A stretch of DNA of 34,535 nt from Gemmatimonadota bacterium (GCA_003697105.1 RFFQ01000135.1:1-34535), one strand, 5' to 3'; shown: positions 222-17,840, counted from the first letter of the stretch. The notes: a model not told the origin generated them from the sequence alone. Translations and numbers: made by a program.

Positions 222-3200
222 CTATGGAGATTGGCACAAAGTTCGGTCTTCTGTGCTGACACGAGGGTTGTAGCGAAGATAATCTGCAACCCAATTACAT
301 CCCCATTCTAGCAACGCATCCAATCCGTCCTCTTTGCCCAGAGCGGGGTGTAGGATATTTTCTAAATTCCAAATTTTGACCTCATCTTCACTGGCAGAGG
401 CGATGGTCTTATTGTCGTTGCTGAAATTGATGTCCATGATTTTCGTATGATGTCCGGTAAATGTTGTCACTTTTTCCCCATTGGTTCGCCACAAAATGAT
501 TTGGTTATCCGTACTCGCGGAGATAATCAGGTTGCCATCAACACTGAACCCGACGCTGGTCACTTTGGATTGGTGACCGCGAAAGGTGCGAATGAGATTG
601 CCCTCCACATCCCACAACTGGATTTGATGGTTGACATTCCCCGTCAAGATATGACTGCCGTCTGGGCTGAAGGCAATTGCCGATAAACTCGTTTGGGGGT
701 CCCCAAATGAGCGGATTTTATCCCCCTTGATATTCCACAATGTGACATAACCATCCCAACCCGAGGCTGCAAGTATTTCACCGCTGGGATGAAAGGCAAC
801 ACCGGTCATTTCGTCGGGATGGATTAAGGTGCGGAGCAGTTTGCCCGTTTTGCTCCACAGTTTTATCGTCTGGTCAACACTGGCAGAAGCCATCAGGTTT
901 CCATCCGGGCTGAAAGCGACATCCCAAATCCAGTCCTGGTGCCCACTCAATGTTTTTAGCAGCTTGCCGGTGCGACTCCATATTTTCATGGTTTGATCTG
1001 CGGAAGCGGTGATGAGCTGGTCGCCGCTGGGACTGAATGTGACATGGTAAATCACATCTGAATGAGCTTGCCAGGATCGTAATGGTTTGCCGTTGGCTTC
1101 CCACAGTTGAACGACTCCTTGTTCGGTGGCAGTGGCGAGCCGGTTGCCATCGGGACTGAAAGTAACACTGGTTAAATGCGGTGTCTCCGGGAACAATCGG
1201 TTTTGTTCGGTTACTTCTGCGGCGAGTTCTTCCAACATCTGTTGAACCTTTTGTTGTAGCTCTAGGGGAATTTCGGCTTGCGAGAGCCGTTGTCCCGCCT
1301 TAATAGCGGCAATTAAGGCGCCGAGTTGATCCATGGCGTCACGGTGTTGCTTGGCTTGGTCTAATAATATCTTAATTTGTCCCTGTACCGCTAAATTCCG
1401 CTGTTCCTCCGCAATTTTTTTTTGCCGGAGGGCTTCTTGTTTGTTTTGAATGGCGATTTCGCGCTCTTGTTCGGCGATGGCTTTCTGCCGGAGGGCTTCT
1501 TGTTTGTTTTGAATGGCGACTTCACGTTCTTGTTCAGCGATGGCTTTCTGCCGGATGGCTTCTTTTTCGTTTGCCTCGGCGATTGCTTTTTGTTTGATGG
1601 CCTCTTGCTCATTGATGACGGCAATCTGCCGTTGCTTCACCGCTTCTGCTCGCTGGAACAGGGCAATAACCGCCAGACACGAGACGATGACCGCTACGGC
1701 GATCACGGCTCCCATCATAATTTTACGGCGTCGCTCTTTGGCACGGAAGGCGGCTTCAATAGCATCTTTGCTGGTTTGGATGAATTCCTTTTGGATGGCG
1801 GTGGGAGCAGGTGTTTTATGGTGCTCTATGGCTTCTGTCAGCCACATTTCTGCCGCCGTAAATTCCCGCCCGCGCAGGAGCAAATCCCGACTTTTTTCGT
1901 GGGCTTCCCATTCAATGGCGCGTTGCGACCACTTCGTATGGCTTTTCACATGTTCGCGATCGGTATCAAGCGTCCGTACCAATTCGCTGAATGCGGCTTG
2001 AAAATCGCCGCGACGGCTCTCAAAATCGATCCACTGTACCGATTTTAAGCCCTCCGGCAATCTATCCTGCTCCACGGAGCGATATAATACCGGAATAATC
2101 CGCTTATTTAACTTCTGGGCATATTCTACCTCTTCTACACAGAATTCCGATTCCACGGCATGGGGTGAAATCACAAAAACGATGTTGTCGGAGGATTCAA
2201 TCCCTTGAAAAATTTCACTTTGAAAATCCGACCCAAAATCGATACTTTCTTGATCGAACCAGGTGATTTTTCCTTGCAGTTGTAACTGCTCGTTGAGAAG
2301 GCGGCAAAAATCTCCATCCGCCCGTGAATAGGAGAGGAAAACATCCGCTGTCGTATCTGGGGGTTGGTTTTCACTCTCTTCGATGAATTCTTTATGGATC
2401 GGTAGCATCGGGTGGTCAGGGTGCTTATCCGCTAACCGTACCCATGCCTGAGCATTTTTGAGTTCATGTCCCCGTAATAAGATACCCGGATTTTTATTTT
2501 GGCGTTCCCAGCGTAACGCCTTGACCAACAGCATCTTATGTTGATAGTAATAATCCCGATCCCGGTGTAGTTCGTAAAGGAGTTTGTCGATACCCTTGTA
2601 ATAGGTTTCATCCGCATCATCTTCAGATTTGGGGAGAATATCAATAAATTGTACTTTTCGGATTTCGGGCGGCAGGGTGTTCAAGTCGGTGGGTGCCACC
2701 ACCAACATGATAATTCGTTTTTTCAATTGTGTCGCATAGGCTAATTCTTGTTGGCAATATTCGGATTCCAAAGAGTCGGGGGAGAGTAGAAAGACCACAT
2801 TGGTCGTTTCTTCAATTCCTTTGTTAATTTCTTCCTGAAATTCTACGCCGGTGCGGATATCGGTGAGGTTTGTCCAGACGGTCAGACTGTTGCGCATTAA
2901 GGATTGCTTGATCTTTTCCATCATTTCTGTATTCTGGGTGGAATAGCTCAAAAACACGTCTGTAACCAATCCTTGTGCATTTTTGATGCTCTCGGTGATG
3001 TACTCCGCATGGAGCAAGGTTGGTTCGCAGGGTGCTTGCTGGGTGTCAAAGCGTTGTTTTAACCACTTTTCCGCCTGAATCCGGTTTTCTCCAGTGAGTA
3101 AGTATTCGACGCGTTTTTGGTGCCGTTCCCAATAAAGCGCTTGGGTCAGGATTTGGGTATGCAACTTCACATAATCTTCATGCCGGTGCAAAAGTTCCAC

Positions 3201-3638
3201 AAGTCCTGAAAACGCCTGCTCGAAATTATCCACCGCTTCGTATTGATCTTGAGGTACCTCCGGATCGTACTTTTCGCGCATGTAAATCCAGTTGATCTTA
3301 CCAATTACCGGATGGATGCTGTCCCACAACCCTTCGGGTTCTACATGCAAAATGGGGATGATGCGCTTGTTACGCCGCACGGCTAATTCGATTTCTTTTA
3401 AGCAATATTCGGATTTCACCGAGTGCGGCGCTATTATGAAAATAAAATTATGAGCTTTTTCGATTCCATCATCAATCTGATTTTGAAAATCAACCCCCAA
3501 CGGGATGTCATTCTGATCAAACCAAACTTGGAAGCCACTTTCCTGCAACCGGTTGTGTAATTTCGTCGCAAATGCTTTGCTTTCTGCACGACCGTAAGAA
3601 ATAAACACATCATTATGCCCAATCAAATTTTCCATCAT
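222..3638 (-). CDS. Triple-TIR / TM / coiled-coil / WD40-repeat protein (1138 aa)
   Basis: Three TIR_2-type starts (DVFISYGR aa10, DVFLSYST aa227, DVFLSYSR aa432), each with W[FT]D/N..I..G..F...I..GIE and S.[YF]C..E motifs. Hydrophobic helix IMMGAVIAVAVIVSCLAVIALF (nt 1656-1721), 21-aa repeats, then seven WD40 repeats (e.g. GHQDWIWDVAFSPDGNLMASASVDQTIKLWS). ATGA overlap with the upstream gene and an AGAGG RBS. Confidence 0.92.
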   Translation of the reverse strand: MMENLIGHNDVFISYGRAESKAFATKLHNRLQESGFQVWFDQNDIPLGVDFQNQIDDGIEKAHNFIFIIAPHSVKSEYCLKEIELAVRRNKRIIPILHVEPEGLWDSIHPVIGKINWIYMREKYDPEVPQDQYEAVDNFEQAFSGLVELLHRHEDYVKLHTQILTQALYWERHQKRVEYLLTGENRIQAEKWLKQRFDTQQAPCEPTLLHAEYITESIKNAQGLVTDVFLSYSTQNTEMMEKIKQSLMRNSLTVWTNLTDIRTGVEFQEEINKGIEETTNVVFLLSPDSLESEYCQQELAYATQLKKRIIMLVVAPTDLNTLPPEIRKVQFIDILPKSEDDADETYYKGIDKLLYELHRDRDYYYQHKMLLVKALRWERQNKNPGILLRGHELKNAQAWVRLADKHPDHPMLPIHKEFIEESENQPPDTTADVFLSYSRADGDFCRLLNEQLQLQGKITWFDQESIDFGSDFQSEIFQGIESSDNIVFVISPHAVESEFCVEEVEYAQKLNKRIIPVLYRSVEQDRLPEGLKSVQWIDFESRRGDFQAAFSELVRTLDTDREHVKSHTKWSQRAIEWEAHEKSRDLLLRGREFTAAEMWLTEAIEHHKTPAPTAIQKEFIQTSKDAIEAAFRAKERRRKIMMGAVIAVAVIVSCLAVIALFQRAEAVKQRQIAVINEQEAIKQKAIAEANEKEAIRQKAIAEQEREVAIQNKQEALRQKAIAEQEREIAIQNKQEALRQKKIAEEQRNLAVQGQIKILLDQAKQHRDAMDQLGALIAAIKAGQRLSQAEIPLELQQKVQQMLEELAAEVTEQNRLFPETPHLTSVTFSPDGNRLATATEQGVVQLWEANGKPLRSWQAHSDVIYHVTFSPSGDQLITASADQTMKIWSRTGKLLKTLSGHQDWIWDVAFSPDGNLMASASVDQTIKLWSKTGKLLRTLIHPDEMTGVAFHPSGEILAASGWDGYVTLWNIKGDKIRSFGDPQTSLSAIAFSPDGSHILTGNVNHQIQLWDVEGNLIRTFRGHQSKVTSVGFSVDGNLIISASTDNQIILWRTNGEKVTTFTGHHTKIMDINFSNDNKTIASASEDEVKIWNLENILHPALGKEDGLDALLEWGCNWVADYLRYNPRVSTEDRTLCQSP
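1423..1562. repeat. 63-bp tandem coding repeat (2 full copies plus a partial one) in the coiled-coil stalk
   Basis: TGCCGGA... restarts at 1423, 1486 and 1549. Copies 1 and 2 differ at 4 of 63 nt and encode QKAIAEQERE[IV]AIQNKQEALR. Confidence 0.9.
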
Positions 3639-4390
3639 TTCTGACCTCTGAATTTACTTTTTCTTTCTGGGTCTGACAACCGGAGATGCCGCCGAAGTTG
3701 GTTGACCTCAGGGCGCGTCAACGGTCGAGATTCTCCGGGAGATAAATCTCCCAATGATAGTGTTCCAAATTGGGTGCGCTTGAGTGCGATAACAGGATGC
3801 CCGATAGCTTTACACATGCGCCGTACCTGCCGTTTACGTCCTTCATGGATGACAATTTGGAGGCACGTCGTGTTCGTATTTTTCTGGAGGATGCTCACGG
3901 TGGCGGGTGCCGTCCACCCATCTTCCAACAACAGACCTTGCCTCAACCGCTGTAAATCGGTCTCCGCCGGTTGTCCTTCTACTTCCGCAATGTATGTTTT
4001 TTCGACACCATATTTAGGGTGAGTCAAGTGATAGGTCATTTGACCGGAATTTGTGAACAACAGCAAGCCTTCGGTATCCCGGTCCAGCCGCCCGACCGGA
4101 TACAACCGGTACGGCATATCCGGCAGTAGCTCCATCACTGTGGGGCGTCCTTGCGGATCAGAGACGGTGGTGACGTACCCCATCGGCTTGTTGAGCATGA
4201 TGAAAAGCTCGGTTTCCGGCAACAAGACCGGTTGGTGATCCACTTCAACCCGGTCGGTCTCCGGGTTGACGGTGTACGAAAAATCGGTGACCGTTTTTCC
4301 ATTGATTTTAACCCGCCCCGTTTTGATGTATTTATCACATTTACGGCGAGATGCTAAACCCGTTTGAGCTAAAAATCGGTTTAAACGCAT
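3635..4390 (-). CDS. rluB: rRNA pseudouridine synthase, RsuA/RluB family, with N-terminal S4 domain
   Basis: MRLNRFLAQTGLASRRKCD S4 start, LNKPMGYV motif, catalytic VGRLDRDTEGLLL, EGRKRQVRRM. The family is certain; the specific rluB assignment is less so. Confidence 0.9.
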   Translation of the reverse strand: MRLNRFLAQTGLASRRKCDKYIKTGRVKINGKTVTDFSYTVNPETDRVEVDHQPVLLPETELFIMLNKPMGYVTTVSDPQGRPTVMELLPDMPYRLYPVGRLDRDTEGLLLFTNSGQMTYHLTHPKYGVEKTYIAEVEGQPAETDLQRLRQGLLLEDGWTAPATVSILQKNTNTTCLQIVIHEGRKRQVRRMCKAIGHPVIALKRTQFGTLSLGDLSPGESRPLTRPEVNQLRRHLRLSDPERKSKFRGQK

Positions 4391-5337: not shown

Positions 5338-6915
5338 TTATGAAGGTGAATCTGTCAGACTCATAAATACTTTCGGTATCGATTGAATTATATCTGAGGG
5401 AATCAAACTGCGTTCACCCTGTAATGTTCGCGCCATATCACCGGCGAAACCATGCACAAAAACGCCTGCTTGTGCTGCGGAGCTTGCCGGTAACCCTTGC
5501 GCTAGAAAGGTAGCGATGATACCGGTGAGCACATCTCCTGAGCCCGCCGTTGCCATCCCCGCATTGCCGGTGGAATTAATCGAAACCTGCCCGGTGGGGG
5601 AGGCGATAATCGATCCTGCTCCTTTAAGAACAATTGTGACACCCCACTCTTGGGCCTTTTCCCGGGCGATTTCCAGCCGGTTGGGGTGGATGTCGGCTAT
5701 CGAACGTCCGATCAACCGCGCAAACTCACCGAGATGAGGTGTTAATACCAGTTGTTTGCTTTTTTTGTGTTTCAAAACGGTCATATTTGTGGTAAGGGCG
5801 TTTAAGCCGTCGGCATCAATAATCAGGGGTTGCTCGACCGTTTCGACCAAGTGGTGGATGAGGGTTTGCGTTTCCTTATCCGTGGAGAGCCCGGGACCCA
5901 CCGCGAGGCTATCGGCGTGTTGTGCCAACCTCAGAATTGGATCGTGTGCCGTGGGGTGTAATGCTCCGGTTTGGGTGGGGGGGAGTGCTGCTTTGACCAC
6001 TTCGGTCAGTTTGATTTCCATAATATCGCGGATGGTTGCCGGCATCGCTAACGTAACATAACCTGCGCCTGCACGGTATGCTGCCTGACATGTCAGCGTC
6101 GCGGCGCCGGTCATTCCCGGCGAACCTGCAACAACCAACACTTTGCCGCAGGACCCTTTGTGCGCGTCTAGTGGGCGGGAGGGTAACAACCGGCGGATAT
6201 AACCGGAGGTTAGCCAATCGATGGTAAGGTTAGGGTCTTCCGTTAATGAGCGAGGAAAGCCAATATCTAAAATATGCAAGTGACCCACATACATACTGCC
6301 CGGTGGAATCAATTGCCCAATTTTGGGGAGTCCCATCGTGCAGGTGAGGTCTGCCCGCACGCAGACACCTGCCACTGCGCCGGTATCGGTGTTGAGTCCC
6401 GATGGCACATCGACCGCCACAACCGGTTTTTGGCTCGTGTTTATCCATTCAATTATCTCGGCGACAAACCCGCGCACCGCCCCTTTAATACCGGTACCAA
6501 AAATGGCATCGACCAGCACATCGGCTGGGGTTAGATCGGTTTGCGGAAGTGACTCGGGGGTAAGGACTTCCATTGGTATCTGCAATTGGTGGCAAATGTC
6601 CGCATTCAAGCGGGCATCGCCGCGGAGTTGATCGATTGGGGTGAGCATCAGCAATTTGACCGTCCACCCCCAGTTGTGCAGATGCCGGGCAATGACAAAG
6701 CCATCCCCGCCATTATTCCCTTTGCCGGTGAAAATGTACGCAATTCTACCGGTAAATTCTGCGTGGATGATTTGGGCCGTGAGGTGTCCGGCATTTTCCA
6801 TCAGCACCGCACCGGGGATGCCAATCTCGTTGATGGTTAGGGCATCGATCTGCTGCATTTGAACGGCAGAGACCACCTTATAATTGCTACCAGATGGGGG
6901 GATGTAATGTTTCAT
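5338..6915 (-). CDS. nnr: Bifunctional NAD(P)HX epimerase / dehydratase (YjeF_N plus YjeF_C)
   Basis: LMENAG, GKGNNGGDG, VDAIFGTG, AVDVPSG (epimerase); HKGSCG, GAGYV, VGPGL, IDADGLN, LTPHLGEF, MATAGSGDVLTG (dehydratase). Start placed at ATG 6915 rather than TTG 6939; start uncertain. Confidence 0.95.
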   Translation of the reverse strand: MKHYIPPSGSNYKVVSAVQMQQIDALTINEIGIPGAVLMENAGHLTAQIIHAEFTGRIAYIFTGKGNNGGDGFVIARHLHNWGWTVKLLMLTPIDQLRGDARLNADICHQLQIPMEVLTPESLPQTDLTPADVLVDAIFGTGIKGAVRGFVAEIIEWINTSQKPVVAVDVPSGLNTDTGAVAGVCVRADLTCTMGLPKIGQLIPPGSMYVGHLHILDIGFPRSLTEDPNLTIDWLTSGYIRRLLPSRPLDAHKGSCGKVLVVAGSPGMTGAATLTCQAAYRAGAGYVTLAMPATIRDIMEIKLTEVVKAALPPTQTGALHPTAHDPILRLAQHADSLAVGPGLSTDKETQTLIHHLVETVEQPLIIDADGLNALTTNMTVLKHKKSKQLVLTPHLGEFARLIGRSIADIHPNRLEIAREKAQEWGVTIVLKGAGSIIASPTGQVSINSTGNAGMATAGSGDVLTGIIATFLAQGLPASSAAQAGVFVHGFAGDMARTLQGERSLIPSDIIQSIPKVFMSLTDSPS

Positions 6916-6970
6916 AATGATTTTATCTTGTTGTTTCAAACGTTGTTTGTTGCTGACTGGGGGGACTTGC

Positions 6971-6992
6971 CGTGTATAATTCGTGTATAATT
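6971..6992 (+). repeat. Tandem 11-bp direct repeat CGTGTATAATT x2, each copy containing TATAAT
   Basis: Exact copies at 6971-6981 and 6982-6992. Confidence 0.7.
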
Positions 6993-7006
6993 AAGGTTAT
7001 TTGGTG

Positions 7007-7135
7007 ATCCGGCAATCAGTAAGAGATTTGCTGACATGCCGTTTACATGCGATGATGTCCTTTGTGAACGTGTACCATCGCATCTCCTCTAGCCCGCAAG
7101 CGGGTAATGGTACCAAAATCCACAGTGCCCGGAAC
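7007..7135. ncRNA. Candidate structured RNA or 5' leader (three hairpins), family unknown
   Basis: H1 CGGCA-a-TCAGTAA/TTGCTGA-ca-TGCCG (about 7010-7041), H2 ATGCGATG/CATCGCAT (7047-7083), H3 CCCG-CAAG-CGGG (7093-7104; a G-CUUG-C tetraloop on the minus strand), possible TCCGG/CCGGA closing pair. Lies just downstream of a minus-strand promoter. Confidence 0.4.
7043..7078 (-). CDS. Putative 11-aa His-rich leader peptide MVHVHKGHHRM
   Basis: AGAGGAG SD 5 nt before the ATG at 7078 and TAA at 7043-7045; not in the ORF track because it is too short. Confidence 0.3.
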   Translation of the reverse strand: MVHVHKGHHRM

Positions 7136-7145
7136 TGGTGCTTAC

Positions 7146-7174
7146 ATTATGGCAAACTTAGACCCGTTTTGCAA
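7146..7174 (-). promoter_or_regulatory. sigma70-type promoter for the leader and nnr operon
   Basis: TTGCAA (7174-7169), 17-nt spacer, CATAAT (7151-7146), with an extended -10 TGn. Confidence 0.6.
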
Positions 7175-7244
7175 GGTAAAAATGAATGGGATTCTACCTG
7201 CCGGCAGTTCCGTCTGAAAACTACGGATTGTTCTCAAAAAAGGG

Positions 7245-7273
7245 TTGATTTTTTGAGATTTTTCGGATATAAT
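7245..7273 (+). promoter_or_regulatory. sigma70-type promoter for the TPR-hpf-hprK-ptsH operon
   Basis: TTGATT (7245-7250), 17-nt spacer, TATAAT (7268-7273); TAAGGA SD upstream of ATG 7323. Confidence 0.7.
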
Positions 7274-7322
7274 GCCAGACAGAACTCAGATTTGACCTCC
7301 CTGATATAAGGACAGCCTTGAC

Positions 7323-10300
7323 ATGGCAGATGCGGAAAAAATCATCCGAAAAGCCCTTCGTTTTAAAGAAAATAAGCAATTCGATAAAGCCACTGAAACC
7401 CTCCGTGATTTTCTCAAAGACCATGGTCATCATTTTGACGTCCTGTGGGAACTTGCCGCCATTTACTTTGAAAGTGGGCGGGAAAAATCCGGTGTGACCA
7501 CCTTACGGCAGGTTTTAAAGTCGTATCCCAGTAAAATTCAAGCCGTTTCTGCATTTTTGGAACGGGAATGGAAACATGCCCGGGATCCAGAATCATTGCT
7601 CTGGTTTTTGTGGGAAAATCAGATTCACCAGCGTGACTTTGATGAAGCCAATCGGGTGCTGGAACGGCTCGATACCCCCGCCATTCAAGAGCAATTAACG
7701 CACTATCGGGAAAATCTGCGTCACATTGAGGAATATAAAGACCCGACGAATTACGATGATAATGACATCGATACCTTCTATTATCTCGCGGAATTGCAAC
7801 GCCACCTCGGTCAGACGGAAGAAGCGTTGATCTCCATCCGCAAACTAATCGATCTCCGCCCCGCCGAGACCCAAAATATCAAGCAAATTTACGAAAAAGA
7901 ATATCACCGTAACCGGGAAGATGAACATACTAAGTCCATTCTCGGTGAAATCTATATGATGACGGATGATATTGAGAGTGCGGTGGAAGTCTTTCTTGAA
8001 ATTCCAGATAAAGATGCGAACCGGTTGCAGGACGCGGTGCATTTGCTGGAAAAAATGCTCCTCGATAAGCCCGATAATCCAGAGCTGCTCAAAGGGATGG
8101 CAAAGATACATCTAAAATTGGATAACATCTCTGGTGGCTTGGAGTATCTGGTCCGGGCGGCAATGATTGCCCCAGAAGCCGGTGAGGAAGTTCTGCTGGA
8201 ACTCGATAAACTGAATGGTGACCATGAGGTGGGTGTGTTGTATGCCCGCGGTCAAATTTACCAACTGCAAGGGAAGTATCAAGCTGCCATCGATGCCTAT
8301 CAGACTGTTTTAGAACGCGACCCGGCTTATGAAGCGGAAGTCTTAGCCAAACTGGCTGAAATTGCCGATCAAGATAACCAGAATTTAAATGCCTTGTTGA
8401 ATATGAGCGAGCTGGAGATTCAACGGGGTGAGTTTTCAAAAGCGTTACGTTGGCTCGACAAAGCCCGCCGGTTACGTCCGGACGAAATGGATGAGATCAT
8501 CCGCCAGCTCTTGAAAATTTTGCAGGTCGATGAAAGCCATCTGGAAGCACACCGGCGGTTAGGTGACATCTATACCGATCAGGGCGATTATGAGCGTGCA
8601 GTTGCTACCTATTTGCATCTAGCGGAAACCAATCCCGCCGAGGAATGCCGGGCGGTTGTAATCAAAGGTTTAGAGACGATCCACACCAAAAAGCCATCCC
8701 ATACAACCGTTTCATTGGAACTCGGTAAATTATATATCCGCCAAAAAAATTACCAAGAAGCCATCATGCGCCTGAGCGATGTCTTAAAGTATGCACCGGA
8801 TCAACTGAATGCCGTCATGCCGTTGATTACGGAAATCCTAAATAAAGACCGTAAGCAGGCAAGTATCGTAGCCCGAATGTATGAAAGTGTGGCACTGAAA
8901 ACGGGTATTGATGATACGTTGGTCGCATTGGCTTTGGCAAAAGCCTATGTTTACGAACGCCAATACGAACGGGCTACCCAGCAGTTGGAACGTGTGCTGG
9001 CACTTGATGAGAGCTACACGGATGCCGTAGTTCCTGTGTACCAGCAGATTTTGGATGAGAATCCTTCCCACCACGAAAGCCGACTCGCATTAGCCGATTT
9101 GTATATGCGCCAAGGGCAGTATCCGGCGGCAGTGGATGTTTTGCGCGCCGCCGCCCGTCACAACCAGAGCAGTTCCCAAATCATTGAGTTGTTTTATAGG
9201 ATTTTGGATCGAGAGGATAGTGATTATACCCGCCAAGCCTTGATCGAGACCCTCCACGAACGCAAATTAACCGACTTGACGATTCAAGAGTGCGAAAAGG
9301 TGATTCAAAAATCACCGGAGGCGGCTTATGCCTACGAAATCTTGGCGGATGCCCTGATTGAAAAGGGACATTTCACCCAATCCGTGGACCGGATGTATGC
9401 CTTGATGGCAATGGATGCCTCCACAGTGGATGTGGTCTTGGAAAAATGTGACCGTATCCTCAGTATTGATGAGACGAATGTTGCCGCCCGCTATTGCCGG
9501 GCAGAAGCCTTCATTAAAAAAGACCGTCTCGCAGATGCCGTTGATGAATTTATGCGGGTGCTGAAATATGATTCAGACCGGATTGAGGCGGTAATCGATC
9601 ATCTCAAGCGGGTGATTTCCCTCCAGCACACGAATGTGGACGCTCATCTGGCGTTAGGGGAAGTTTATCTCCAGAAAAATGATTACAATGAAGCCTCGCG
9701 GGCTTTCAGTACGGCACTGGAGCTTGATAGTGACCGGCTGGGGGAAGTGATTCGCAAATATTATCAAATTCTGAAACTCGATCCGGTGAATGTTACGGCG
9801 CATTTTATGCTGGGCAAAGCACTTATCAAAAAAGAAGAATATGCCAAAGCGGTTGAGCACCTTGATATGGCGCTGGAATTGGATTACCAGTTCATGGAGC
9901 CGGTCATGCGGGAGTACCAACGCGCGCTGGAACAGGACGCGAGCGTCCCGCAAACCCACTTGGCATTAGGCCAGATTTATGCCCAGAAAAATTTATATTC
10001 CTCGGCTATCGAACATTTCACCAAAACCTTGGAGTTAGATGCCAGTTTGGCAACACAGGTGATCGACCAGTATCAGGCAATACTCCTGAAGTCACCGGCT
10101 CAAGCCAAAGTCCGGTTCGCTCTAGGTAACGCATATATCGTGGATCAGGATTATCCGGCGGCAATCGAACAGATCGAAACTGCATTAAAGACCGACGAAA
10201 AATTACTGCCCCAAGCGATTGAAGCGTATGAATCCATCTTAGTGCGCGACCAGCAGAATGCGCGCGCATTATTGGCGCTGGCAAAAGGCTATGTTCAGCA

Positions 10301-11147
10301 GGGCAATTTTGAAAATGCGGCAACGCATTTGGTGCAAGTGGCCGATTTAGACCCGAATCAGACGGAAGCTATCATCGAAGGCTTGGAGATGATTTTGGAT
10401 GCAGACCCCAGTCAGGTGACTTCCCGTTTGTATCTCGGTGATATGTATTCCCGTAAAGGAGCGTATTCCAACGCCTTGGAGGAATTTCATAAAGCGTTGG
10501 ACCAAACGGAAGATGTCCACCAACGCGTAGAGTTGTATCTTCATATCGGCAATACCTATGTGGCATTACAAGATGACGCGCGGGCACGTCAGGCGTTTTT
10601 AAGTGCTCGTGAACTTGAACCCGAAAATAGTACCTTATACCAGCAGTTGCGTGAATTGTATTCCAAACGCACCGTCACACAGATTCAACTGTTGCGTAAG
10701 CAATTAGAAGCCATGCCTACCGATCCCGCTACACGGTTGGAGTTAATTCGGCGATTGCGTGAAGCTCATCAATATGATGAAGCGATTCAAGTGGCTCAAT
10801 TTAAGGGTATTGACGCCTCGACAGAAGCTCAACGGCTACTGGAATTAGGGCGTTGCTTTTTAGAAAGAGGTGATTATTATACGGCTATTGAGGTACTCTC
10901 AGGTGTGCCGGTTGAGGGCGCATATTTAGACCGTACCGCCTTAGCCCGATTGTATTATCAGGCGATCGCGTATGAGCGCGTTGGTCTCTATCAACACGCT
11001 ATTTCCCTGCTGGAACACATCCAGCGGGTGGATATGGCGTATGCCGATGTACCGGATCGAATCCAACACAACTTTCTTCAACATGCCAAAGGGCATGTGA
11101 AAACAGTTGACTATTCGATTCAAATCATACCAGCAACAATACCCTGA
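7323..11147 (+). CDS. Giant tetratricopeptide-repeat protein (1274 aa), probably cytoplasmic
   Basis: Continuous TPR-like helical pairs (AHRRLGDIYTDQGDYERAV, AHLALGEVYLQKNDYNEA, AHFMLGKALIKKEEYAKA, THLALGQIYAQKNLYSSA). No signal peptide, TM helix or catalytic motif seen. Confidence 0.9.
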   Translation: MADAEKIIRKALRFKENKQFDKATETLRDFLKDHGHHFDVLWELAAIYFESGREKSGVTTLRQVLKSYPSKIQAVSAFLEREWKHARDPESLLWFLWENQIHQRDFDEANRVLERLDTPAIQEQLTHYRENLRHIEEYKDPTNYDDNDIDTFYYLAELQRHLGQTEEALISIRKLIDLRPAETQNIKQIYEKEYHRNREDEHTKSILGEIYMMTDDIESAVEVFLEIPDKDANRLQDAVHLLEKMLLDKPDNPELLKGMAKIHLKLDNISGGLEYLVRAAMIAPEAGEEVLLELDKLNGDHEVGVLYARGQIYQLQGKYQAAIDAYQTVLERDPAYEAEVLAKLAEIADQDNQNLNALLNMSELEIQRGEFSKALRWLDKARRLRPDEMDEIIRQLLKILQVDESHLEAHRRLGDIYTDQGDYERAVATYLHLAETNPAEECRAVVIKGLETIHTKKPSHTTVSLELGKLYIRQKNYQEAIMRLSDVLKYAPDQLNAVMPLITEILNKDRKQASIVARMYESVALKTGIDDTLVALALAKAYVYERQYERATQQLERVLALDESYTDAVVPVYQQILDENPSHHESRLALADLYMRQGQYPAAVDVLRAAARHNQSSSQIIELFYRILDREDSDYTRQALIETLHERKLTDLTIQECEKVIQKSPEAAYAYEILADALIEKGHFTQSVDRMYALMAMDASTVDVVLEKCDRILSIDETNVAARYCRAEAFIKKDRLADAVDEFMRVLKYDSDRIEAVIDHLKRVISLQHTNVDAHLALGEVYLQKNDYNEASRAFSTALELDSDRLGEVIRKYYQILKLDPVNVTAHFMLGKALIKKEEYAKAVEHLDMALELDYQFMEPVMREYQRALEQDASVPQTHLALGQIYAQKNLYSSAIEHFTKTLELDASLATQVIDQYQAILLKSPAQAKVRFALGNAYIVDQDYPAAIEQIETALKTDEKLLPQAIEAYESILVRDQQNARALLALAKGYVQQGNFENAATHLVQVADLDPNQTEAIIEGLEMILDADPSQVTSRLYLGDMYSRKGAYSNALEEFHKALDQTEDVHQRVELYLHIGNTYVALQDDARARQAFLSARELEPENSTLYQQLRELYSKRTVTQIQLLRKQLEAMPTDPATRLELIRRLREAHQYDEAIQVAQFKGIDASTEAQRLLELGRCFLERGDYYTAIEVLSGVPVEGAYLDRTALARLYYQAIAYERVGLYQHAISLLEHIQRVDMAYADVPDRIQHNFLQHAKGHVKTVDYSIQIIPATIP

Positions 11148-15929: not shown

Positions 15930-17840
15930 ATGCGCTTAATTAAAATCGGAATTGGGTGTGTCAATTCTAAAGTAGGTGCTTTTCGGGAAAATACCCGCGC
16001 TTGTATCGATCTCATTGAGCGTGCTCAGCGGGAAAATGTCTCCGTATTAGTCTTGCCAGAGTTGGCACTTTGTGGTTATAACCCGGATGATCTGAGCTTG
16101 TGGGTCGATTTTGTGGATGCCAACTGGGATGCGGTACACCAACTGGTTCCCCACACGGAAGGTATGTTTGTATCTGTGGGGTTGCTTATCAATTTTGAAA
16201 ATAAGACCTACAACGCGGCAGCGGCTATCCATGATCGGAAGTTGATCGGGGTTGTGCTTAAAGAACAACTGCCCAACTACGATGTGTTTTATGAGGGACG
16301 AACCCTCGCCCGTGGATTTGAGAATTTCCGGATTGATTTGAATGGCGTTCCTGCGGGTGACCTGATCTTCCACACGGATTGCGGGGATATTGCACTGGAA
16401 ATTTGCGAAGACCTCTGGACACCCGATGGACCAAGCAAACGCCGGGCGTATGCCGGAGCAGAACTCATCTTGAACTCTTCGGCATCACCCTTCCGGGTGG
16501 GTGTAAAAGCGATCCGGGAGCACATGCTGGCCACACGTTCCGCCGATCATGAGTGTATTTATGTCTATAGCAGTTTAGTGGGCGGTAATGACCGGTTGGT
16601 GTTTGATGGTGGGGGGTTTGTCTATCAAAATGGAAGACAGGTTTTGGATGCTCCCCGTTTTGAAGAAGGGCTGTTTTGTGCCACCGTTGATGTGGGGCAC
16701 ACGATGCGTATCCGGCGGGAAAATACCACCTGGCGGAATAATGTGGAACGGTTTTATCGCTCCACACAGATGCCACACGTCATCACCTCCCCCGGAAAAA
16801 CCACCGGCCGGGAAAAGTTGATCTACCCGTTACCCTCATCCAAGAATTTTTTCTTGCCGGATTTAGAACCGCTTTCTCACAAAACGGCGGAACAACGGGT
16901 TTATGAAGAATTGCTCAATGCACTTATTTTGGGCACTAAAGATTATTTTGAAAAGACCGGTGCTTTCAAAAAATTTGTGGTGGCGCTCAGTGGCGGCAAG
17001 GATAGCGCGTTATGTGCGTTTATTGCCCAACAGGCAATCCGTTGGCGCTATCCGGATTTAGATGAGGCGGCACTCCGGGAAAAAATACGAACCGAACTGA
17101 CCTGTTTTTATCTGCCTACTACCGCGTTCTCTACCAAAAGTACGGAGAATGCCGCGGCGCAATTAGCCGCAGAACTGGGGGCAACTTTTAAAATTGTTTC
17201 CATCCAAGATGAATTTGAAATTGCCCTGAAAAAACAAGAAGAAATGTTGCTGGATGGTGAAAATATCAGCGACCTCTCTCGCCAAAACACACAAGCCCGG
17301 ATCCGTGGTTCCTGGATGTGGAATTACTCCAATTCCACCGGCGCGATGATCCTCATCACCAGCAATATGAGTGAAGGCGCTGTTGGGTACACCACACTGG
17401 GTGGGGATGAAGAAGGGTGTTTTGCTCCGTTGCTTAACGTCCCCAAAACGATGATCATCAAATTACTGGATTATGCGGCAGAAACTTACCACCTGCCGGC
17501 TTTGCGATCCGTCAACGAATTGCCTCCATCGGCAGAACTCGCGGCAGACCAAACGGATGAGGTGGATTTGATGCCTTATGACATTCTCGATGTCATTTTA
17601 TACCTTTTTGGGGAAGAAAAGCTCGATGCGGAAGAAATTTTACAGGTGCTGATTCAACACTTCCCAGAAATACCTGCCGCTACCCTAAAACAGTACGTAG
17701 ATAAATTTATCAAACTGTTCTTCCAAAATCAGTACAAACGAGAACAATTCGCGTTAGGTATCAAGCTTTACGGGTTGGATTTGGAACCGAAAACCGGTTT
17801 TCGTTTTCCGGTCGTGCAGTCTAGTGAGTGGGCACGTTAA
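15930..17840 (+). CDS. nadE: Glutamine-dependent NAD+ synthetase
   Basis: Nitrilase-type glutaminase domain (PEL, KEQLPNYDVFYE, ICEDLW triad) fused to a synthetase domain (SGGKDS, QNTQARIRG, NMSEGAVGY.T..GD, PSAEL, QYKR); GGAG RBS. Confidence 0.96.
   Translation: MRLIKIGIGCVNSKVGAFRENTRACIDLIERAQRENVSVLVLPELALCGYNPDDLSLWVDFVDANWDAVHQLVPHTEGMFVSVGLLINFENKTYNAAAAIHDRKLIGVVLKEQLPNYDVFYEGRTLARGFENFRIDLNGVPAGDLIFHTDCGDIALEICEDLWTPDGPSKRRAYAGAELILNSSASPFRVGVKAIREHMLATRSADHECIYVYSSLVGGNDRLVFDGGGFVYQNGRQVLDAPRFEEGLFCATVDVGHTMRIRRENTTWRNNVERFYRSTQMPHVITSPGKTTGREKLIYPLPSSKNFFLPDLEPLSHKTAEQRVYEELLNALILGTKDYFEKTGAFKKFVVALSGGKDSALCAFIAQQAIRWRYPDLDEAALREKIRTELTCFYLPTTAFSTKSTENAAAQLAAELGATFKIVSIQDEFEIALKKQEEMLLDGENISDLSRQNTQARIRGSWMWNYSNSTGAMILITSNMSEGAVGYTTLGGDEEGCFAPLLNVPKTMIIKLLDYAAETYHLPALRSVNELPPSAELAADQTDEVDLMPYDILDVILYLFGEEKLDAEEILQVLIQHFPEIPAATLKQYVDKFIKLFFQNQYKREQFALGIKLYGLDLEPKTGFRFPVVQSSEWAR

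Follow-up and report, generated by a model that had tools for sequence, protein, structure and literature searches.

A protein with three TIR domains, a predicted membrane helix and a WD40 propeller as a candidate Thoeris-like receptor in a Gemmatimonadota-labelled genome

Background

Known bacterial TIR systems, Thoeris, SPARTA, TIR-SAVED and Cat1 among them, sense cytoplasmic events. The activity of TIR domains as NADases, enzymes cleaving nicotinamide adenine dinucleotide (NAD), needs TIR-TIR assembly; SARM1, a protein of ARM, SAM and TIR domains, forms an octamer via its SAM domains. The ThsB proteins of Thoeris are small and soluble. Described here is a gene of a Gemmatimonadota bacterium for a protein with three TIR domains, one hydrophobic helix and a WD40 propeller, termed the receptor in the following. 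It lies in a DNA stretch of 34,535 nt (GCA_003697105.1 RFFQ01000135.1:1-34535), which was analysed as a whole and is called the window; gene and domain positions are counted in it. From sequence and structure models, we consider the chances about even that the protein is a Thoeris-like, signal-generating membrane receptor with a built-in extracytoplasmic sensor.

In the main text of a preprint with 29 Thoeris types, TIR domains are described as making signals derived from ADP-ribose (ADPR), with SLOG binding the TIR product in type I; TIR and SLATT constitute type VII with cyclic ADPR (cADPR) as signal, type VIII uses a TPR effector, and phospholipases are among the predicted effectors (bioRxiv 10.64898/2025.12.03.692087). 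The same main text contains the terms WD40 and cyanobacteria zero times. A section of another article predicts SLATT as a membrane effector regulated by ADPR derivatives (PMC9503650). The receptor shares the catalytic Glu of the TIR domain with Thoeris of type I (SIR2-SLOG), type VII (SLATT/ThsH) and type VIII (TPR/ThsI), and effector-type genes adjoin 27 of 77 related receptor genes. It differs by the three to seven TIR domains per chain in its family, the membrane helix and the WD40 repeats, and no effector adjoins this particular gene. Literature searches, which covered the main text of the preprint, returned no description of proteins combining several TIR domains, a membrane helix and WD40 repeats, nor of a link of these to SLOG or SLATT. 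The family is present in databases, but uncharacterised. Fusions of TIR and WD40 in cyanobacteria have reportedly been noted in early comparative-genomics papers.

Results and discussion

Domain architecture and predicted topology

Translation of the open reading frame 222..3638 (minus strand) from its ATG start gives a protein of 1138 amino acids (aa). Own hidden Markov models (HMMs) of the TIR domain and of the helical unit following it were built to place the domain borders in the receptor and its homologues. The features are:

222..3638 (-), whole coding sequence, 1138 aa; stop codon at 222-224, 4-nt overlap between its start and the stop codon of the gene upstream
3276..3614 (-), TIR domain 1 (aa 9-121), from Pfam and own HMM; catalytic-type Glu E82 at 3393-3395
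2988..3224 (-), helical unit 1 (aa 139-217), from module alignment, own HMM and model
2634..2963 (-), TIR domain 2 (aa 226-335), from Pfam and own HMM; Glu E298 at 2745-2747
2373..2603 (-), helical unit 2 (aa 346-422), from module alignment, own HMM and model
2019..2348 (-), TIR domain 3 (aa 431-540), from Pfam, own HMM and structure searches; Glu E503 at 2130-2132
1770..2003 (-), helical unit 3 (aa 546-623), from own HMM and models; its last helix extends into the membrane segment
1638-1799 (-), predicted continuous helix (aa 614-667), from AlphaFold2
1722..1739 (-), basic run KERRRK (aa 634-639), directly N-terminal of the hydrophobic segment, from sequence
1656..1721 (-), hydrophobic segment (aa 640-661), predicted transmembrane helix, Kyte-Doolittle peak 2.9
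1194..1655 (-), helical stalk rich in Q, A and E with pre-propeller linker (aa 662-815), from sequence and heptad scan
1419-1572, 63-nt tandem repeat in the stalk, 2.4 copies, 91% matches
333..1193 (-), seven WD40 repeats of 41 aa each (aa 816-1102), one propeller, from Pfam and repeat alignment
225..332 (-), C-terminal tail (aa 1103-1138) with two conserved Cys (C1114, C1135), from sequence and homologues
3635..4390 (-), upstream co-directional gene with S4 and pseudouridine synthase domains, given for context only

In the Pfam search, three stretches matched TIR_2 (E 1.9e-82) and seven matched WD40 (E 1.6e-63). The modules of TIR domain and helical unit (aa 1-217, 218-429 and 430-630) are 33-40% identical to each other and have 46 invariant columns in common, the S..C..E motif among them. 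A preliminary description of this DNA had claimed three such tandem modules, seven WD40 repeats and the lack of a P-loop NTPase. The modules were confirmed by Pfam, own HMMs and module alignment, the propeller by the seven Pfam stretches and the 41-aa period; a motif search found no Walker A motif in the 1138 aa, and no NTPase family was among the Pfam matches listed (25 of 52) or the six NCBIfam matches.

The segment aa 640-661, right after KERRRK, is the sole region of the protein exceeding a Kyte-Doolittle (KD) value of 1.6 in a 19-aa window. A basic run followed by a short uncharged hydrophobic stretch is the usual signature of a signal anchor. Six K and R residues are located within 10 aa on the N-terminal side, three on the C-terminal side. 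A protein search yielded 4067 matches at E<=1e-3 among 8000 scored; 110 of the best 120 homologues have a hydrophobic segment after their last helical unit, with a median KD peak of 2.38 and a median uncharged span of 23 aa. The sequence of the segment is variable, its hydrophobicity is conserved. Within 15 aa, these 120 proteins have on average 5.0 K and R residues on the N-terminal versus 3.1 on the C-terminal side (N side higher in 102, equal in 13, lower in 5). An orientation with the N-terminus inside and the C-terminus outside fits because of this charge bias and because no signal peptide is possible in front of 640 residues of cytoplasm type. The propeller of the receptor is probably extracytoplasmic. 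The topology proposed earlier, a single transmembrane helix, N-in, with the WD40 repeats outside, is supported by the one hydrophobic helix and the charge bias in 102 of the homologues; it does not hold for the eight homologues devoid of the segment that are considered below.

Toll-like receptors have in common with the receptor a sensor built of repeats, a single membrane helix and TIR on the cytoplasmic side, the latter two predicted for the receptor. The order, however, is inverted, with N-terminal TIR domains and a C-terminal sensor. Toll-like receptors possess a leucine-rich repeat (LRR) horseshoe and one adaptor-type TIR domain, whereas the receptor has a WD40 propeller and three TIR domains with an enzyme-type Glu; its order is three TIR domains, hydrophobic helix and WD40, and Pfam found no LRR in it. 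The likeness is one of logic only, and nothing points to a common descent of the whole architecture. The earlier notion of a sensor in the style of Toll-like receptors is retained for this shared logic, but the inverted topology, the WD40 instead of LRR repeats and the enzyme-like TIR domains speak against a closer correspondence.

TIR domains

The conserved Glu is the last E of the motifs SEYCLKE, SEYCQQE and SEFCVEE, thus E82, E298 and E503. The E in the second position of the motif (E77) is unconserved and mostly replaced by Pro in relatives. In three-module relatives the Glu column holds E in 100/100, 99/100 and 98/100 of the modules 1, 2 and 3, respectively, and in longer forms of the family in 96 of 109 modules. 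The retention of the Glu in all three TIR domains, as claimed before, extends to a family-wide conservation at each module position.

A profile of module 3 matched 58 solved chains in the PDB, all of them TIR domains, including TLR2/15, Cat1, SARM1, AbTir and TIR-APAZ, with the TIR domains of TLR2/15, TLR1 and TLR6 among the top sequence matches. In this profile the Glu of the receptor aligns with the Glu in 'KEIV' of SARM1, which we take to be the catalytic E642. A Foldseek search with the AlphaFold2 model of aa 428-668 revealed the SARM1 TIR domain as closest (E 2e-7). With VIA, the model of the same region was closest to the TIR domain of Hydra TRR-2 (Z 19.7, root-mean-square deviation (rmsd) 2.1, 126 aligned), and the SARM1 TIR domain scored Z 18.6 (rmsd 1.7, 126 aligned). 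The SARM1/TIR-1 NADases are thus among the closest solved TIR folds, with an aligning catalytic Glu; SARM1 differs by one TIR domain per chain and has neither membrane helix nor WD40 repeats. By sequence, all three TIR domains of the receptor look competent as enzymes of the NAD-cleaving type. Database profiles pointed to TIR proteins of Thoeris: NCBIfam and PADLOC returned ThcB4 and ThsB-type TIR matches, the NCBIfam match to ThcB4 covering only the TIR part with 112.7 bits, under the cut-off of 220. A match to bSEFIR in PADLOC (PDLC03957) was partial (E 6.1e-11, aa 430-760 versus profile positions 38-364 of 412, in two stretches).

AlphaFold2 modelled aa 428-668 with a pLDDT of 96.2 and a pTM of 0.85, and the three-module region (aa 1-668) with a pLDDT of 91.0 and a pTM of 0.84. 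Since this pTM applies to 668 residues, the model indicates that the three modules are held in a fixed mutual arrangement and not as beads on a string. In both models the last helix of helical unit 3 extends without interruption across basic run and hydrophobic segment (aa 614-667). The pre-linked TIR trimer suggested before corresponds to this predicted array. TIR-APAZ/SPARTA, TIR-SAVED, Cat1 and AbTir resemble the receptor in TIR sequence or fold and in the expected activation by bringing TIR domains together. In those systems, cytoplasmic Argonaute, SAVED or CARF sensors gather the TIR domains, whereas a single chain of the receptor comprises several TIR domains from the outset, in connection with a membrane helix.

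Effector-type genes beside related receptors

According to the preferred reading, a Thoeris-like membrane receptor, the stalk and the seven-bladed propeller outside the inner membrane would bind a protein or envelope cue originating, for instance, from phage, competitor or damaged kin. Binding would be passed inward through the rigid helix or by receptor association, upon which the TIR domains would form active sites and turn NAD+ into an ADPR-derived messenger. This messenger would open a SLOG-gated SLATT membrane effector or, in relatives, activate a patatin lipase, and the cell would be stopped. The effector in the receptor's own genome would be an unlinked cassette on contig C84, fed by three receptor paralogues.

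A scan of one genome per species detected 403 encoding stretches, the majority in filamentous cyanobacteria and others in genomes labelled Gemmatimonadota and Bacteroidota. From the best 80 of these, 77 related loci were obtained, several of them sharing a genome and many cut by contig ends. Neighbours were surveyed by crude calls of open reading frames, three genes to each side, and clustered, the family labels being taken from one example per cluster. Among the neighbours in the 77 loci were LSDAT_prok SLOG (11 loci), DUF4231/SLATT_3 (11), SLATT_1 with DUF4231 (4), patatin (6) and TPR-S with a cyclase (5). No family was universal, the maximum being 11 loci. At least one of the SLOG, SLATT, patatin or TPR-S families occurred in 27 loci, SLOG or SLATT in 22, and these 27 loci span at least a dozen genus-level taxa. 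Co-directional orders included SLOG-SLATT_1-receptor, SLOG-patatin-receptor and receptor-SLATT_3 plus two genes without assigned family. Five genomes of 5.5-8.5 Mb contained LSDAT_prok in one or two copies, of which one was always located just upstream of a receptor gene. Five further genomes without such a neighbour at the locus examined had LSDAT_prok (1-2 copies) and DUF4231 (1-3) elsewhere, in four of them within about 2 kb of each other. The option of a cADPR-type signal, raised in the preliminary description, gains clear support from the SLOG, SLATT, patatin and TPR-S genes beside relatives, although none stands beside the gene of the window.

The candidate effector in the receptor's genome consists of two genes on contig C84 (5.85 kb), at the following contig positions:

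2901-3659 (+), SLOG (LSDAT_prok), 252 aa
3681-5699 (+), SLOG-DUF4231-SLATT_1 fusion, 672 aa

No nucleotide-generating enzyme adjoins the cassette, and no SMODS match was present in the receptor's genome. The contig ends 151 bp past the fusion gene, in a repeat that it has in common with C52 and C104 only. Eleven TIR domains of the genome belong to its three receptors, and a small TIR gene on contig C160 provides the only other one. New here is the link to SLOG, SLATT and patatin, which provides a testable pathway and an effector candidate in the same genome. If the reading is true, the receptor would be the first bacterial counterpart of Toll-like receptor logic, represented by hundreds to thousands of proteins, and it would show a TIR enzyme switched across a membrane without an NTPase.

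A more elaborate version portrays an outside-in TIR immune receptor: a periplasmic WD40 propeller would sense phage, competitor or damaged kin before or as the envelope is breached, and the rigid helix would act on the pre-assembled triple-TIR array to yield a cADPR-type messenger, with paralogues of different propellers sharing one SLOG-gated SLATT pore encoded elsewhere. In all these details together the version is speculative and rather unlikely. If true, sensors and helpers would form a network comparable to the one known for plant TIR receptors, with no NTPase switch.

Alternative explanations

Several observations weigh against a Thoeris-like messenger pathway. No effector is located beside the receptor gene, whose neighbours are pseudouridine synthase, STAS and NAD(P)HX repair genes, and both paralogues also lie among housekeeping genes. 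None of the signalling neighbours was found in 50 of the 77 related loci, many of them contig-cut and all with crude gene calls. In a comparison of contig ends, the C84 cassette was joined to no receptor contig, and the C160 TIR gene could be an alternative partner of the cassette or a separate TIR system. TIR-helical modules and LSDAT_prok co-occurred in the same three of 41 genomes searched; since all three belong to one class, this amounts to about one observation, maybe a single evolutionary event. The membrane topology is affected by eight of the 120 homologues that lack the hydrophobic segment (peak <=1.04), two more being borderline. These proteins (P0002, P0012, P0013, P0023, P0033, P0034, P0075 and P0119) keep the stalk motif and the WD40 repeats, and at least six of the eight the two-Cys tail; the sensor can therefore work in the compartment of the TIR domains.

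The main rival is a self-contained, NAD+-depleting suicide receptor, in which the TIR array itself is the effector, as in SARM1 or SPARTA, and neither messenger nor partner is involved. The missing effector neighbours of the receptor gene and its two paralogues and the 50 loci devoid of signalling neighbours are in line with it, as are the SARM1 TIR domain among the closest solved structures and the high local enzyme density resulting from three to seven TIR domains per chain. The SLOG, SLATT, patatin or TPR-S genes beside 27 of 77 receptors, with an adjoining SLOG gene in five of five genomes checked, are, however, hard to explain without a signal. As sole mode of action, NAD+ depletion is possible, but not probable; it is compatible with a messenger, and both modes may coexist.

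An improbable alternative is a cytoplasmic or peripherally anchored protein whose helix is buried in an oligomer or a mere anchor, with the WD40 repeats sensing an intracellular cue, similar to soluble STAND-WD40 proteins. The WD40 sensors of conflict systems, e.g., of APAF-1-like STAND proteins, are described as cytoplasmic (PMC7159879), and the eight homologues without segment have retained all else, including the two-Cys tail in at least six. One of these, P0012, and the membrane-type paralogue P0011 both originate, by their source names, from [Leptolyngbya] sp. PCC 7376. Predicted soluble forms of the family thus exist, and an outside propeller is not universal. For the receptor itself, this alternative has to account for the sole uncharged stretch of 22-23 aa with a KD of 2.9 in 1138 aa, preceded by a basic run and hydrophobic in 110 of 120 homologues; in related genomes, this plan of basic run and hydrophobic helix is also exhibited by nSTAND1 proteins. 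If the segment inserts, the C-terminal part must cross the membrane, because the segment is too short for a re-entrant hairpin.

A non-immune receptor for a physiological or cell-cell cue (such as envelope state or neighbours in filament or biofilm), whose messenger made from NAD would serve regulation or a developmental cell death instead of anti-phage defence, would suit the co-directional housekeeping run with the 4-nt overlap to the upstream gene, suggestive of constitutive expression, the concentration of the family in filamentous, multicellular cyanobacteria and the three genomic copies without mobile-element or defence-island genes nearby, but it is very unlikely in view of the recurrent SLATT and patatin neighbours, i.e., pores and lipases that are cell-killing effector types in CBASS and Thoeris (bioRxiv 10.64898/2025.12.03.692087), the expansion of paralogues (3 in the receptor's genome, about 7 in the genome G001) and the identities to the closest homologue of 40% for the sensor versus 63% for the TIR part, fitting an arms-race sensor.

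Helical units and stalk

The helical unit after each TIR domain, of about 80 aa, may be the transducing element. A scan of 47 members and three pieces of the receptor returned no convincing Pfam family for it, and the module 3 profile had no sequence relative in the PDB outside the TIR part. The fold-search matches of the aa 428-668 model were taken up by the TIR domain (model residues 1-144). An Atlas look-alike search gave only a weak lead to nSTAND1 (0.75). The profile of the helical unit matched one nSTAND1 protein weakly (domain E 6e-5; E 3.1e-4), and hhalign of the unit with the nSTAND1 juxtamembrane region gave a weak match (probability 17%, E 0.0015, 32 columns). The juxtamembrane plan of the receptor recurs in nSTAND1 proteins of the genomes G001 and G030, where a helical region closing with '..E..F[LI]..S' is followed by a basic run, a hydrophobic helix with a KD of 2.2-2.85 and a coiled coil. 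Helical unit and nSTAND1 juxtamembrane region appear to be of the same design, and a common origin is possible. The nSTAND1 and NACHT-type STAND proteins with WD40 or TPR sensors in multicellular bacteria (Kaur et al. 2020, PMC7159879) differ from the receptor in the presence of an NTPase.

Five nSTAND1 proteins of related genomes have a basic run and one strongly hydrophobic helix between the NTPase and the C-terminal part: L023 2326-5523(-), L024 217-3321(+), L025 2118-5069(+), L026 2713-4986(+) and L027 922-3633(+). Membrane-spanning STAND receptors thus seem to be common in this lineage.

In the stalk, a heptad scan found 2-5 of 8 a/d positions hydrophobic. The two-copy complex prediction of membrane helix and stalk (aa 625-815) had a score of 0.01 and gave no verdict. 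The 63-nt (21-aa) tandem repeat at 1419-1572 suggests that the length of the stalk changes by gain or loss of repeats.

Propeller, family and paralogues

Fourteen WD repeats are carried by 97 of the 120 homologues. The receptor with its seven repeats and the closest relative of the same length, P0022, with six detected, belong to a minority with a single propeller. The sensor diverges faster than the TIR part, with the above identities to the closest homologue of 40% versus 63%. Recent shuffling of repeats in the receptor's propeller was considered and left no sign, the WD repeats being only 10-56% identical in pairs. The tail motif C.W..DYL...C with its two Cys is retained in at least 98 of the 120 homologues. 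The two-Cys tail was dropped as a marker of topology, as it is also present in homologues without hydrophobic segment.

The best 120 homologues are mostly from filamentous cyanobacteria and annotated, e.g., as 'TIR domain-containing protein' or 'WD40 repeat protein'; the preliminary description had expected relatives in these organisms, and both protein search and genome scan found them there. TIR domains and helical units alternate strictly in all 120 proteins, three times in 100, five times in 14, six times in 3 and seven times in 3. Module types are position-specific: first modules resemble first modules with 53-56% identity. The five-module form looks like a duplicated pair of modules 1 and 2 plus module 3. 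In a quick tree of N-terminal regions, rooted only at the midpoint, the window's protein paired with a protein of a Gemmatimonadota-labelled metagenome-assembled genome (MAG) with a support of 100, outside the cyanobacterial bulk, and one paralogue from the receptor's genome grouped with a Cytophagales-labelled MAG.

The receptor's genome has 4.18 Mb in 199 contigs and is 96.9% complete; sorting tails of the type IX secretion system, SusE and HprK are present, which shows that the organism does not belong to the cyanobacteria. Three receptor copies were found in it: that of the window, a five-module form of 2023 aa on contig C57 and a three-module form of 1438 aa on contig C62. No mobile-element or defence-island genes were detected around the three copies.

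Neighbouring genes and further observations

The receptor gene is the last in a co-directional run of genes for NAD(P)HX repair, a STAS protein, pseudouridine synthase and the receptor, with gaps of 19 and 7 nt and the final 4-nt overlap. In the synteny check of the related loci, genes for pseudouridine synthase, STAS protein or NAD(P)HX repair did not recur beside relatives. The NAD(P)HX epimerase/dehydratase is encoded at 5338-6939(-) and a glutamine-dependent NAD synthase at 15930-17840(+) of the window. The proximity of these NAD-related housekeeping genes to the receptor is probably a coincidence, because at least the NAD(P)HX gene is not conserved beside relatives. Divergent from the receptor's gene run, a protein of 1274 aa consisting almost entirely of TPR repeats is encoded at 7323-11147(+).

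In loci of Floridaenema and Nostocaceae, the DUF4231/SLATT_3 gene downstream of the receptor is succeeded by two conserved genes, of about 111 and 448 aa, that match no Pfam family (L071 8768-9037 and 9193-10536; like positions in L076, L083 and L090). On C160, the small TIR gene (264 aa; L115 5593-6387(-)) is next to a DUF1848 gene (6478-7353(-)), and a Macro-domain gene is about 4 kb off (1015-1590(-)). Only two sampled genomes belong to the same class as the receptor's genome; one of them, G001, holds about seven copies, a one-module form included. A one-module form of 755 aa in a genome of the same class, composed of TIR, helical unit, hydrophobic helix and WD40 repeats, is encoded right after an nSTAND1 gene (L024 3591-5855(+)).

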